A stretch of DNA of 31,698 nt from a virus. Its lineage: Duplodnaviria; Heunggongvirae; Uroviricota; Caudoviricetes. The notes under the pieces were generated by a model. It saw nothing but the letters and a program-made list of their open reading frames with translations. It did not search any database and was not told the DNA's origin. The stretch lies in the IMG/VR virus record IMGVR_UViG_2565956729_000013, positions 1 through 31,698 of that record. One strand, written 5' to 3'. Position 1 is the stretch's first letter, and each line of letters opens with the position of its first letter. The translations under genes were made by a program, and so were the position numbers. This document shows, piece after piece, positions 7,407-13,465 of the stretch.

Positions 7407-7749
7407 CAAGAGATACCGTAAAAGTCAGGGGATCAAAAAAATCTTCGGTGTGGGCGCTAATCAGCAGGCGGCCGGAAAGAGGGGTTTCCTCTGTCACACT
7501 GACCGTGCCGGGTGTGATGCGCTCATCATCTTCAATCAGCAGTGTCATCTGCATCATAATGTCGGCGCGAAGCGTCGGGCTTTTTTCAGCCAGCAGGCGC
7601 GTTGCCAGTCCGCTTTCAATGATGGCGTGCTGGCAGTCCTGGGCAATGCTTTCCCTGTTGTTGCACAGCACCGGTTCGGCGGCGCTGTTCAGCGTGAAAT
7701 TGCGACCGGTGATAAGCAAATCAATGTAAAGCGGTTTATCAGTATGCAT
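7399..7749 (-). CDS. small baseplate protein (GpW/gp25-like or Mu gp46-like), tentative
   Basis: ATG at 7749 (MHTDKPLYIDLL...) overlaps the last codons of the tape measure gene; 116 aa; family assignment is positional. Confidence 0.5.
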   Translation of the reverse strand: MHTDKPLYIDLLITGRNFTLNSAAEPVLCNNRESIAQDCQHAIIESGLATRLLAEKSPTLRADIMMQMTLLIEDDERITPGTVSVTEETPLSGRLLISAHTEDFFDPLTFTVSLDD

Positions 7750-9835
7750 GCAGCTCCATCCATTCATTAAGGTGGGCCGGGGATGCATCCTGCACATTGA
7801 CATTGACCACGCGACGGGAGTTATCAATTGTGGTCTGGCTGTCGCTGTTATTTTGCATTTTTGCCGCAATGCCACCTGGCCCGGCGCTAATAACTTTTCC
7901 ACCGGTTAATACAGAACCCTCACTGTTATCTGTAATTTCTGGTACATCAATATTTATACCCGGGAGCATATTCAGCTTGTCAGCAATCCATCTGAATGCT
8001 GAGCTGAACATACCGATAATTGTGCGCCATAGTCCTGAAAATAATTTATTAATCAGACGGACATAATCCTGAAATATTTCCAGCGGTGAGCGGGTGGAAA
8101 AATAATTAATAACGGCATCCCAGCCGCTTTTAATGCCTTTCCAGGTATTGCCGAACCATACAGCTATATTTTTTATGACACTGGTTACCCACTGAAAAGC
8201 GGCTGTATCCATCAGTGCCGCTTTGATCTCATCCCAGCGGGTAATCAGAAAATAAATGCCCACGCCCAGCGCAGCCAGTGCCAGGATGATTAACGTTATC
8301 GGGCTGAAAAGTAGCTGAGTGGCAACGGCTGCGCCACCGGTAACAGCGGTATAAATTTTCATGGCCACAGCTGCAGCGCCCAGTGCGGCAGAATAAAGCC
8401 ACATACCGATGCGTTGCAGTTTCAGCAGTGCAATCTGAATTTTGGCCCTGACATTGTGCGCCCCCATGGCGATACTCATCGCCAGATATAATGCCCTGAC
8501 CATGCGGGCAGTAGCACAGAACGCCAGCATAACCACTTTCAGGGCACGATACAGAAAGATGATTAATTTCAGTGGTGCGATTGCGGCCATCCAGACCATG
8601 CGTAATCCCACCCAGATAAATTTCGCCACCCCCATTACGATATTGACCGTTGCGCCAACCGCCGCAACACCAATAAGTGCCGCGCTTAATAAGCCGATTG
8701 CACGTGTGATGTTTGGATACAGACGCAACCAGGCAACAAAGGATTTACCGCCTTCGTTGCTTTTCTGGATGAATGGATACAGAACGGGTAACAGTTGTGT
8801 GCCAATTTCAATGCGAATGCCGTTAATAATCGCAGCGGCCTGTTCCCACGGATCGGCCATGGCTTGTGCCATTTCGACAGCCTTATCCATACCTTTGATA
8901 TTGCCCAGCGTGGCGATGTTCTTTTCCAGTCCGCCAATGTCTGCATTGAGCAATTTAATCATGGCCACAGCCTCATCGGAGCCAAAAGCGCTTTTCAGCA
9001 AATCAGAGTCAGCCACTTTTGACAGATCACCAAATTTGCCCCTGATAAGTTTCATGATCTCGACAACACTTTTCATCGTGCCGTCTTTATTCACGAAATT
9101 AAGCCCCAGCTTTTTCTGTGCTTTACCAACGGATGCCAGGAAGGATTTATATTTTGTACCAGCCTCGCTGCCACTCATGGTTGCCTGCAGTTGCCCCAGT
9201 ACGGCGAACTGCTCGGCCGCATCAATACCGGCTGCTTTTGCGCTGGCACCCAGTGTGGTGAATGCCGCTGACATGTTATCGCCGGTTGTTTTAAACATTT
9301 GCACGGCAGTGGCGGTTTGTCCGGCGATCTGCTCCACCCATTTACTTTTTCCCATGGCATCAGCCTGGTCTTTAAATATGCCGTACATGGTGCCCATGTA
9401 GGCGGTAATGGTCTGGCTGCTGGATTTGGTTGCTGCTGCCACTGTTGCTGATGCGGTGGTGAAGCGGGACAGCTCATCGTCAGTTAACCCGGCAATGGCT
9501 GACTGGATGTCGTAAGAAGCACGCACAAAATCCTGCGCAGCTCCGCCGTATTCCATAGTGAAATCAACGGCGGCGCGGCTGAGTTTACGCAGTCCGGACT
9601 CTGCGACGCCCAGTGATTTCACCTCACCGAGCGCCCTGTCCATTTCAATGGCTGGCATCAGTGCGCCCTGAATGGCTGCACCCACTCCCCAGAGCGCAGC
9701 GCCTCCGGTAGCAATGTCCCGAAAAGCTCCCCGACTTGTTGCAGCAAATCCCTGAACCTGTCGCCCGGCTGCGCGTAACGGCCTTGTCAGGCGGTCTGTC
9801 AGTTCAAGAAGTAATTCAAGGCGCTGTTGTGACAT
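7739..9835 (-). CDS. tail tape measure protein
   Basis: 698 aa, Ala/Gly-rich with central hydrophobic segments; start ATG overlaps the stop of the chaperone frameshift frame (TAATG). Confidence 0.85.
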   Translation of the reverse strand: MSQQRLELLLELTDRLTRPLRAAGRQVQGFAATSRGAFRDIATGGAALWGVGAAIQGALMPAIEMDRALGEVKSLGVAESGLRKLSRAAVDFTMEYGGAAQDFVRASYDIQSAIAGLTDDELSRFTTASATVAAATKSSSQTITAYMGTMYGIFKDQADAMGKSKWVEQIAGQTATAVQMFKTTGDNMSAAFTTLGASAKAAGIDAAEQFAVLGQLQATMSGSEAGTKYKSFLASVGKAQKKLGLNFVNKDGTMKSVVEIMKLIRGKFGDLSKVADSDLLKSAFGSDEAVAMIKLLNADIGGLEKNIATLGNIKGMDKAVEMAQAMADPWEQAAAIINGIRIEIGTQLLPVLYPFIQKSNEGGKSFVAWLRLYPNITRAIGLLSAALIGVAAVGATVNIVMGVAKFIWVGLRMVWMAAIAPLKLIIFLYRALKVVMLAFCATARMVRALYLAMSIAMGAHNVRAKIQIALLKLQRIGMWLYSAALGAAAVAMKIYTAVTGGAAVATQLLFSPITLIILALAALGVGIYFLITRWDEIKAALMDTAAFQWVTSVIKNIAVWFGNTWKGIKSGWDAVINYFSTRSPLEIFQDYVRLINKLFSGLWRTIIGMFSSAFRWIADKLNMLPGINIDVPEITDNSEGSVLTGGKVISAGPGGIAAKMQNNSDSQTTIDNSRRVVNVNVQDASPAHLNEWMELHAY

Positions 9836-10316
9836 TACGTTCCCTTAAAGGCGCGGATAATGCCGTTATTGACGGCGATACCCATATTTTCCCAGTAGTG
9901 GTTATCCAGCCAGACGGCAGCAGCCAGTGACTGTGGTGAATCATCTTCACCGGGCAGCCAGTGGCGGCGCAGGATCAGCATCCTGGTAAGGTCATTGCGA
10001 TCAATGGCCCTCAGATGGCTTTTTATTTTTTTACGGTGATTTCCACTTCCGGCACAAACTCGTTATTCACGGCAGTTGCCAGACTGGCCGGCATTCCCGG
10101 TTTTTCCAGCAACTGGTTCAGCAGATCGCGGTGCTCTTTAATCACGATGCGGCGCAGGTAGTTTTTCAGCGGTGCAATTTTATTGTCCGGCATGAAGTCG
10201 TTCTGCAGGTCGTTGTAGTCTTTCACCGTCGGGATAAACGTCAGTTCATGCTCGCCGACCTGTAAAGTGATGGCGTTCTCTGCGGTGGTTTGGGTGTTTT
10301 TATCGTTCATCATCAT
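9835..10316 (-). CDS. tail assembly chaperone E+E' fusion via programmed -1 frameshift (predicted)
   Basis: The -1 frame from the A7 run (10032..10026) is open for 63 codons (IKSHLRAIDRNDLTRMLILRRHW...AFKGT) and stops at TAA 9837..9835, overlapping the tape measure ATG. Confidence 0.6.
10023..10316 (-). CDS. tail assembly chaperone (P2 E-like)
   Basis: 97 aa ORF directly upstream of the tape measure gene; ends GTA AAA AAA TAA, i.e. slippery heptamer A_AAA_AAA at the stop. Confidence 0.7.
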   Translation of the reverse strand: MMMNDKNTQTTAENAITLQVGEHELTFIPTVKDYNDLQNDFMPDNKIAPLKNYLRRIVIKEHRDLLNQLLEKPGMPASLATAVNNEFVPEVEITVKK

Positions 10317-10380
10317 GTCCTGTTAATGTCAAGAATAAGAGGGCTTAATAAGCCTGCAGGAAGGCTTATTAAGCGTAAAA

Positions 10381-10722: not shown

Positions 10723-10831
10723 TTTTGCTCCTTACGGGGTTGTTGAGGTTTACGCAACCAGCGCCACAACGCCCGGATAATTTTCCAGACAATGGCAGCG
10801 GCTTTCTGATCCCTGCGGGACTGCATTGCGG

Positions 10832-11131: not shown

Positions 11132-11587
11132 TTACCCCATCAGCCCGCGCACGTCGTTCTCTGAGAGAACGGGCACGCCGTTGATACGCACAAAGTCAGG
11201 GCTTGCCACCACGTACTTGATTTTGTGCGTGGTCAGATCCGCGCTCTCGGTGTCAATGCTTAACAGGTTCGAAAGCATCAGCTCGCAACCGAAGGCTTCA
11301 ACGCGGATTTCTTCGGTGCCCGTGTTGGCGTAAAACACAAAATCCATTGGCGGCAGGTCACGCCACGATCCCGCCTGAGCCGCCACTTCCCCGAGCTGGT
11401 TAAAGCTGCGGGTACTCATTTCGATTTCACCTTCGGCACTGACAGGGCCGCGCAGTTTGCCGTCAGGGATGCCACGGGTTTTGGCCACGGCGCTTTCGTC
11501 GCTGATATCCAGCGAAATGTTTTTTACGCGGATATCCGTTCCGCCAACATAAACATCAAAGGCCATGCCGTTAATGCGGGTTGTCAT
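11132..11587 (-). CDS. tail tube protein (putative)
   Basis: 151 aa ORF immediately after the sheath-like gene (ATGA overlap); assignment positional. Confidence 0.55.
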   Translation of the reverse strand: MTTRINGMAFDVYVGGTDIRVKNISLDISDESAVAKTRGIPDGKLRGPVSAEGEIEMSTRSFNQLGEVAAQAGSWRDLPPMDFVFYANTGTEEIRVEAFGCELMLSNLLSIDTESADLTTHKIKYVVASPDFVRINGVPVLSENDVRGLMG

Positions 11588-12751: not shown

Positions 12752-13465
12752 TTATCTCGTGCCGCCGTAATGCAGGCTGCGCAACTGCGCTTCCAGAATG
12801 CGGGTAAATTCAGCATCGCTGGCGCCCAGAAATGCGCGGGAGGGGATTTTGATTTCCCATACACGCTTTTTCTGCTCGCCTTTCAGAATGCTGATCACCA
12901 GCCCGGCCTGCGCCATACTCATGTTTTCCATAATCCATTTCAGGGAGGGCTTTCTGCGTCCCCTGCGTCCGGTTTTTTTGCTGACCGCTCCGATGGGTGC
13001 CCGAAACCCCAGAGAAAGAAGCCGCTCCGCCTGCCGTCGTGTGGCGGGGCGGGTGCGCATGGCTTCGTTGTCCCGGCGCTTTGTGGCGCGGCCTTTGATG
13101 ATTGCGCCATGCTGTTGTACCCATGCGACCGCCCCACCATGAGAGCCGGTGTTGTAATTCCCTTTTTTAAAGAAAAGGCGGACACTTTTCCCGTTGCCGT
13201 CAATCCTGATGGCCAGCAGTTTCGGCAGTCCCAGCAGCATTTTGTTTTTATACCTGCCGCTGGCTTTATCCGGTCTTTTTCGTGGTGCCCAAGCTGCCCC
13301 CTCCGGTGTTCGCTGTGCTTTCACATTGCGTCGAGCAGCCGGTATCAGGCCGTATTTCGCAATGCGAACCAGCAGCTTTCTGGCCTTTGCCGGTGGAAGT
13401 TCTGCCTCTCTGATGGCGCGACGAACCTGCCGGAGTTGTGACTCGTTAATCACGGGGCGCGTCAT
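12752..13465 (-). CDS. virion morphogenesis / tail completion protein (P2 S-like or Mu G-like)
   Basis: 237 aa basic protein; start overlaps the upstream stop (ATGA); lies between head completion and sheath genes. Confidence 0.55.
   Translation of the reverse strand: MTRPVINESQLRQVRRAIREAELPPAKARKLLVRIAKYGLIPAARRNVKAQRTPEGAAWAPRKRPDKASGRYKNKMLLGLPKLLAIRIDGNGKSVRLFFKKGNYNTGSHGGAVAWVQQHGAIIKGRATKRRDNEAMRTRPATRRQAERLLSLGFRAPIGAVSKKTGRRGRRKPSLKWIMENMSMAQAGLVISILKGEQKKRVWEIKIPSRAFLGASDAEFTRILEAQLRSLHYGGTR

Follow-up and report, generated by a model that had tools for sequence, protein, structure and literature searches.

A probable programmed −1 ribosomal frameshift in the tail assembly chaperone gene of an ESSI-2/HP1-type prophage

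INTRODUCTION

Phages lambda and P2 each make two products from one tail assembly chaperone gene, the longer of them by a −1 ribosomal frameshift, a mechanism that has experimental precedent in both phages (PMC5009743; PMC3091744; annotation of the P2 record). The P2 frameshift occurs at T_TTT_TTG (Christie et al. 2002, cited via PMC3091744). The fusion domain of lambda gpGT is believed to bridge the tape measure and tube proteins (Levin 1993, Xu 2004/2013/2014, summarized in PMC5009743). Here we examined 31,698 nucleotides of viral DNA, positions 1 to 31,698 of IMG/VR record IMGVR_UViG_2565956729_000013 (“the window”), which carries an ESSI-2/HP1-type myovirus prophage of the family Peduoviridae. 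An original prediction, made from the letters of the window alone, had proposed that a programmed −1 frameshift in its tail assembly chaperone gene gives a fusion product. Judging by the sequences of the window and its relatives, we consider it very probable that this gene contains a programmed −1 ribosomal frameshift.

The closest described system is gpE/gpE+E′ of P2. Both phages are Peduoviridae with contractile tails, and both have a small chaperone open reading frame (ORF) immediately upstream of the tape measure gene. In both, a −1 extension of approximately 50 to 60 codons has no start of its own and ends over the tape measure start. The two products are 91 and 142 amino acids in P2 and, as predicted, 97 and 160 amino acids in the window. 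The slip sites are arranged differently. In P2, T_TTT_TTG is followed by six sense codons before the stop (NC_001895), whereas the A_AAA_AAA or A_AAA_AAC heptamer of the window’s family abuts the stop in all 28 distinct sequences. Unlike in P2, the tube and chaperone genes of the window are separated by a holin-endolysin cassette. The protein families also differ, being PF10109 (Phage_TAC_7) and PF06528 (Phage_P2_GpE) in P2 but PF10963 and PF21830 in the window. Membership in the P2 families was tested and rejected, as the predicted fusion matched neither of them while P2 E+E′ matched both. The original prediction had called the window product an E+E′ fusion and had likened the architecture to that of P2 and lambda. 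The architecture bears out this likeness, but the E+E′ label can be kept as an analogy only, given that the protein families differ. The comparison with P2 E/E′ that it had suggested gave no detectable sequence homology; hhalign with a 15-sequence family profile assigned a probability of 0.1%.

Lambda gpG/gpGT offers the same pattern of an abundant chaperone and a rare frameshift fusion at a fixed ratio, encoded upstream of the tape measure gene. Lambda differs in having a noncontractile tail and the heptamer G_GGA_AAG, and the binding roles of its products are proven, whereas we infer them for the window. Its proteins also belong to other Pfam families; no lambda-type family matched the window proteins in family scans, which were made without direct sequence comparison. 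On sequence grounds, the window pair has every feature by which the lambda G/GT–P2 E/E+E′ class is recognized (Xu et al. 2004).

Bacterial genes supply further parallels for the slip itself. The insA-insB′ pair of IS1 uses a −1 slip of tRNA-Lys on an A-rich A_AAA_AAN heptamer. Escherichia coli dnaX likewise uses a −1 slip of tRNA-Lys on A_AAA_AAN, but its site is the far shiftier A_AAA_AAG and is flanked by a Shine-Dalgarno-like element upstream and a strong hairpin downstream (PMC5009743). The A_AAA_AAC heptamer functions in bacteria and archaeal viruses, although it is regarded as a “eukaryote-type” site (PMC5009743).

True homologues of both parts of the window pair are found in the HP1 orf26-orf27 region, K139 orf30-orf31, F108 Orf31/32, phiO18P gp36/37, ESSI-2, and ESSI2_ev239 gp11/gp10. 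The predicted fusions of these six phages are 33 to 50% identical to that of the window, and all share the heptamer-plus-stop and the −1 extension. They differ in having A_AAA_AAC where the window has A_AAA_AAA and in their downstream hairpins. None of the six records annotates a frameshift, and the extension is either unannotated or called a “hypothetical protein.”

RESULTS

The chaperone ORF, the heptamer, and the −1 extension

Every gene in this region is encoded on the minus strand. The three elements of the proposed frameshift are as follows.

10316..10023, minus strand: tail assembly chaperone ORF in the zero frame, 97 amino acids, 11.1 kDa, with the stop TAA at 10025..10023
10032..10026, minus strand: slippery heptamer A_AAA_AAA in X_XXY_YYZ phase, read from the sequence, with the zero-frame stop UAA directly after it
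10026..9835, minus strand: −1 frame extension of 63 codons, from AUA (10026..10024) to ACG (9840..9838), with the stop TAA at 9837..9835

The chaperone ORF matched Pfam Phage_TAC_10 (PF10963) over the full model (positions 1 to 82 of 82; E = 1e-24; 87 bits against a cutoff of 25.7). It also matched phrog_1214, and its homologues carry the name “putative phage tail assembly chaperone.” A moderate Shine-Dalgarno sequence, AGGA, lies upstream of the cluster of ATG codons at its start. The last codons are GAA ATC ACC GTA AAA AAA TAA (protein ...E-I-T-V-K-K), in agreement with the GTA AAA AAA TAA ending of the original prediction, and the run of seven A’s falls at 10032..10026. The heptamer is made up of the A of GTA followed by two AAA codons, and it is the sole in-phase X_XXY_YYZ heptamer within the chaperone ORF.

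Between 10062 and 9838, the −1 frame has no stop, and it overlaps the final 12 codons of the chaperone. Counting from the heptamer’s last A, this frame has 63 sense codons (IKSHLRAID...RAFKGT; in full, IKSHLRAIDRNDLTRMLILRRHWLPGEDDSPQSLAAAVWLDNHYWENMGIAVNNGIIRAFKGT). The final A of its stop is the A of the tape measure ATG at 9835..9833 (TAATG). Translation therefore reproduced the predicted 63 codons and the overlap with the tape measure start. The open frame also spans the whole gap between the chaperone stop and the tape measure ATG, as had been claimed, but that gap is 187 nucleotides long and not 188. The +1 frame has many stops. The predicted fusion would be 160 amino acids and 18.4 kDa, compared to 97 amino acids and 11.1 kDa for the chaperone alone. 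Its junction would read ...EITVKKIKSHLR..., with the junction peptide ...VEITVKKIKSHLRAID....

Residues 19 to 62 of the extension matched Pfam DUF6890 (PF21830) over the full model (positions 1 to 44 of 44; E = 3e-23; 81.8 bits against a cutoff of 23.6). The extension also matched phrog_7050, and both families are listed as “unknown function.” No NCBIfam model matched the fusion.

Conservation of the two-frame arrangement in relatives

Relatives were located by tblastn with the extension and were then read by ORF logic only, that is, by the points at which the extension frame becomes open and the frame one base ahead reaches its stop. The heptamer was not used as a search criterion. The 64 fetched loci came down to 28 distinct sequences. 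Their sources were prophages of E. coli, E. albertii, Citrobacter, Yersinia, and Edwardsiella, together with phages or prophages of Cronobacter, Vibrio, Aeromonas, Pasteurella, Haemophilus, and Pseudoalteromonas. Among the phages were ESSI-2, ev239, ev040, vB_YenM_324, PV94, Vibrio 1.202.O, vB_Psp_PY3, P05B, phiO18P, K139, F108, and HP1. By tblastn, homology ran from residue 1 of the extension onward in 73 phage records.

The final 7 nucleotides before the chaperone stop were AAAAAAA in 19 of the 28 sequences and AAAAAAC in 9. A stop codon (TAA, TAG, or TGA) directly abutted the heptamer in every case. The −1 ORF was 60 to 64 codons long in all 28 and ended between 1 nucleotide before and 30 nucleotides after the tape measure start. 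Thus, the original prediction of a conserved chaperone frameshift architecture held throughout, with heptamer, stop, and −1 ORF reaching to the tape measure start in 28/28 relatives, including those whose fusion proteins are only 33 to 45% identical. In five lineages (L048, L001, L054, L061, and L062), the overlap of the two frames is just 10 nucleotides (N-GTA-AAA-AAN), so that a change of frame is possible only on the heptamer.

The predicted fusions aligned end to end with 33 to 80% identity, and conservation continued across the junction. The extension begins with a conserved x-x-x-x-[LV]-x-A-I-[ED]-x-N-x-[LF], which lies upstream of any start codon, of the Pfam model, and of the RefSeq start. 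We then considered the 16 codons between the slip site and an internal ATG of the extension (position 9981, described below), using the ratio of nonsynonymous to synonymous differences per site (pN/pS). For 15 close relatives, this was 0.39 in the −1 frame compared to 1.2 and 2.7 in the other frames. For all 25 distinct sequences, it was 0.61 compared to 1.2 and 1.5. The trend points unambiguously one way, even though the sequence pairs lack independence. In this stretch, third codon positions of the −1 frame have the most differences. Judged by these patterns, the 16 codons evolve as coding sequence in the −1 frame. The original prediction had put forward the frameshift as an explanation for a seemingly noncoding gap, and this fits well, since the extension fills the gap and its first 16 codons are under −1-frame coding constraint.

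The extension stop overlaps or nearly touches the tape measure start in almost all relatives (TAATG, TGATG, or ATGA). In the window, the tape measure Shine-Dalgarno sequence, AAGGGA, lies inside the last extension codons and has a pairing energy of −5.3 kcal/mol. We observed that the conserved C-terminal ...AFKG codons contain this sequence (AAGGGA or AAAGG), at 9838..9850 in the window and at the equivalent positions in relatives. Part of the AFKG conservation may therefore be a constraint at the nucleotide level.

RNA structure downstream of the heptamer and possible slippage of RNA polymerase

We inspected the sequence after the heptamer for stimulators and found one candidate.

10017..9979, minus strand: candidate stimulatory stem-loop with the outer stem CAUCUGAG...CCAGGAUG and the inner stem CAUUG/CAAUG, starting 8 nucleotides after the heptamer

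This is the hairpin of the window’s clade. Across 12 close relatives, 94% of its cells pair, with too little variation for covariation. The ESSI-2 clade has CGAGUCC(G/A)...(C/U)GGACUCG at equal spacing, with one compensatory change from G-C to A-U. More generally, in 14 of 18 lineages, folding of the 60 nucleotides after the heptamer was better than that of dinucleotide shuffles. The mean z score was −1.78, and 396 control windows taken from these loci averaged −0.31 (Mann-Whitney p = 9e-6, which is optimistic since the lineages are related). The stems are lineage specific and differ between clades. A common downstream structure for the whole family was tried with RNAalifold and rejected, as six sequences gave only −6.9 kcal/mol and almost no covariation. 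We regard a stimulatory hairpin as plausible but unproven.

The fusion could also be imagined to arise without any ribosomal slip. If RNA polymerase added one A within the run of seven, a fraction of the mRNAs would encode a protein of nearly the same size with one extra Lys, and homopolymeric A/T runs are known to provoke RNA polymerase slippage (PMC5009743). We find this origin improbable. In 9 of the 28 relatives, there are only six A’s and then a C, a short tract for a polymerase to slip on, and the X_XXY_YYZ phase is nonetheless kept exactly. The codon phase of the run never varies, and phase is of consequence to a ribosome but not to a polymerase. Downstream RNA structure is enriched, as ribosomal frameshifting predicts. 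Because relatives with six A’s and a C exist and the codon phase is strictly conserved, the ribosome would be the main actor, while transcriptional slippage could make a minor contribution in members with seven A’s.

Existing annotation of the extension and the internal ATG

The extension is already known to databases in a shortened form that begins at an internal ATG.

9981..9979, minus strand: internal ATG, the start given by RefSeq and the Prokaryotic Genome Annotation Pipeline (PGAP) for a 48-amino-acid “DUF6890 family protein”; probably not a genuine initiation site

RefSeq annotation of 41 complete E. coli genomes with a 90 to 99% identical copy gives the chaperone and a separate 48-amino-acid protein, with no frameshift. 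An independent small gene is what the PGAP calls in these 41 genomes describe, and it agrees with the presence of an in-frame ATG and with the DUF6890 and phrog_7050 models, which begin at or just after the internal Met. The surroundings of this ATG argue otherwise. It has no usable Shine-Dalgarno sequence; the sole AGG abuts the ATG, with a duplex ΔG of +0.7 kcal/mol, compared to −4 to −9.3 kcal/mol for the well-supported starts in the window (tape measure, endolysin, holin, and tube). The ATG also forms part of the hairpin candidate’s 3′ arm. Its Met lacks conservation, with Y, L, A, F, or V in its place in relatives, which have no start codon at any shared position. Lastly, the 16 codons upstream of the ATG are conserved as protein and are under purifying selection in the −1 frame. 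An independent gene starting at 9981 is thus very unlikely in our view, and a frameshift from the chaperone ORF is the preferred source of the extension.

A search of 1.84 billion representative proteins with the extension alone as the query returned 40 clusters, all of 28 to 67 amino acids, with called starts scattered over extension positions 1 to 24. Such scatter is what gene callers yield when there is no true start. No long in-frame fusion was present among these 40 clusters, and therefore the two frames do not come from one gene that a mutation or a sequencing error has split. Of 14 distinct phage and prophage records, none had a joined coding sequence; the extension was left blank or called a “hypothetical protein.” A 2024 paper on phage phiA051 treats it likewise (PMC11292799).

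The family models omit the junction-proximal motif [LV]-x-A-I-[ED]-x-N-x-[LF], with Pfam starting at extension residue 19 and phrog_7050 at residue 16. For PF21830, the omitted conserved residues are the 18 nearest the slip site (window 10026..9973). Both models seem to have been built from miscalled short ORFs. From these comparisons, DUF6890 and phrog_7050 seem to represent the C-terminal domain that frameshifting adds to Phage_TAC_10 chaperones and not a free-standing 48-amino-acid protein.

One protein stands apart. P0018, a 96-amino-acid protein from Salmonella enterica serovar Montevideo, has the chaperone N terminus (...KNYLRR) in frame with the DUF6890 part (RRHWLPGEDD...); no other protein found has the two Pfam domains in a single frame. 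It appears to result from a deletion between two short CTGCGCCGC repeats, with loss of the chaperone C terminus, the slip site, and the first 20 extension codons. P0018 probably comes from a decayed prophage.

Results that weigh against a programmed frameshift

Several results count against a programmed frameshift. In the window taken by itself, 6% of mononucleotide shuffles of the 189 nucleotides keep the frame open, which is not significant alone. The window is gene dense, and 24% of all its positions have at least 63 open codons downstream. Runs of seven A’s occur at chance frequency, with 11 seen against 10.98 expected. The hairpin of the window is imperfect, with two mismatches; a z score as low as that of the 60 nucleotides after the heptamer, −1.97, is reached by 18% of control windows. 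Inspection of the relatives revealed no conserved Shine-Dalgarno-like stimulator upstream of the heptamer. By comparison with A_AAA_AAG, the heptamers A_AAA_AAA and A_AAA_AAC shift much less readily in E. coli (PMC5009743), and the efficiency of the slip may be low. The AlphaFold2 model of the chaperone, made with 14 sequences, had a predicted local distance difference test (pLDDT) score of 51 and a predicted template modeling (pTM) score of 0.31, too poor for a fold comparison with other chaperones. Finally, the fusion is neither annotated in the 14 distinct records nor reported in the literature searched, which held nothing on DUF6890 or on chaperone frameshifting in ESSI-2 or HP1.

With open-frame shuffles at 6% and the A7 count at expectation, a claim of significance from the window alone was rejected. 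For the frameshift reading, significance rests on the comparison of sequences among relatives. The same two figures, and the proneness of homopolymer runs to sequencing errors, are what could be said for a noncoding gap or a gene broken by mutation or sequencing error with a −1 frame open by coincidence. This explanation is hardly credible and, on sequence evidence, effectively refuted, since the two-frame arrangement recurs in 28/28 distinct sequences from independent genomes and phage isolates, no full-length in-frame version is found among the 1.84 billion representative proteins, and the extension matches curated families (E = 3e-23) and is under purifying selection.

A sequence profile search of solved structures gave chance matches only, with E values of at least 0.07.

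Genomic context and neighboring genes

Two further structural genes bear on the proposed roles of the chaperone products.

7739..9835, minus strand: tail tape measure protein gene, 698 amino acids; Pfam PhageMin_Tail (PF10145), E = 1.5e-29; RefSeq “phage tail tape measure protein”
11132..11587, minus strand: tail tube protein gene of the HP1 Orf24 family; Pfam Phage_HP1_Orf24 (PF10772), E = 1.7e-50

The equivalent of the tube gene in ESSI2_ev239 is labeled “tail protein” and lies beside the sheath gene, and an ORF of the DUF2586 family in the window occupies the position of the ESSI2_ev239 tail sheath gene. The chaperone and its extension are directly upstream of the tape measure gene, and the holin and M15 endolysin genes separate the tube gene from the chaperone. 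The flanking genes (Phage_TAC_10, PhageMin_Tail, HP1-Orf24, and the DUF2586 ORF) are consistent with a chaperone frameshift.

Other features of this region were noted in passing. The 64-nucleotide spacer from the M15 endolysin stop to the chaperone start contains a perfect 13-bp inverted repeat, GCTTAATAAGCC TTCCTGCA GGCTTATTAAGC (10343..10374, minus strand), followed by CCTCTTATTC. It is terminator-like with a poor U run and could be an attenuator or an RNA-processing site that separates the lysis genes from the chaperone and tape measure genes. ESSI2_ev239, vB_YenM_324, and ev040 have Rz-like spanin genes between the endolysin and the chaperone (L001 3070..3402; L054 447..936). The prophage and its 95%-identical E. 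coli relatives have no spanin genes in this place and only the hairpin spacer (10317..10380). An unannotated gap of 109 nucleotides lies between the holin and the endolysin (10723..10831) in the prophage and the E. coli relatives.

A second coding-strand run of seven A’s was found at 12973..12979, minus strand, inside the ORF 13465..12752, a homologue of the ESSI2_ev239 “tail completion or Neck1 protein.” This run starts at codon position 1 (AAA AAA A). Because its position is out of X_XXY_YYZ phase, there is no reason to suspect recoding there.

DISCUSSION

In the model that we infer for the production of the fusion, its abundance, and its binding partners, most ribosomes would terminate at the UAA and release the 97-amino-acid chaperone. 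A minority would slip back one base on A_AAA_AAA, where both Lys tRNAs can re-pair perfectly. In the A_AAA_AAC relatives, the corresponding event would be a tandem slip of tRNA-Lys and tRNA-Asn. The slip would probably take place with the stop, which is decoded slowly, in the A site or adjacent to it; a contribution of slow stop decoding is suggested because the heptamer always abuts the stop. Slipped ribosomes would read AUA AAA AGC... for 63 further codons and produce the 160-amino-acid fusion, with DUF6890 as its C-terminal domain. Translation of the tape measure gene is probably coupled to the extension stop because the stop overlaps the start (TAATG).

The frequency of the slip would set the ratio of the two products, and low shiftiness of the heptamer would suit a low, fixed ratio of fusion to chaperone. 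If the products act like lambda gpG/gpGT and P2 gpE/gpE+E′, the N-terminal domain that both share would coat or bind the tape measure protein. On the same analogy, the rare C-terminal extension would recruit the tube protein and nucleate tube polymerization (PMC5009743; PMC3091744). The HP1 Orf24 family tube protein is the putative partner of the extension domain by extrapolation from lambda gpGT-gpV. Neither product would be expected in the virion.

A more specific idea concerns the stop codon, and we put it forward tentatively, as a possibility that we would not bet on. The abutting stop may be an integral part of the recoding signal, with slow termination giving the Lys and Asn tRNAs time to slip. 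The ratio of the products would then reflect competition between release factor and slippage, tuned by the hairpins of each lineage. If this is true, HP1/ESSI-2 chaperones would have a naturally conserved “shifty stop” −1 site, unlike those of P2 and lambda, in which zero-frame codons follow the slip site. The family is compact and suited to testing whether an adjacent stop stimulates −1 frameshifting.

The window provides an unannotated but ordinary instance of the tail chaperone frameshift class. The mechanism is textbook material and will not surprise phage biologists. Xu et al. 2004 and Christie et al. 2002 reportedly describe the arrangement as conserved among P2-related phages, and HP1-type sites may already be tabulated there, although databases ignore them. 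The main value of the finding is for annotation, as RefSeq/PGAP and the family phage records examined, including those of HP1, K139, F108, phiO18P, and ESSI-2, split or omit the extension. Correcting these records would give DUF6890 a function across the HP1-like Peduoviridae.

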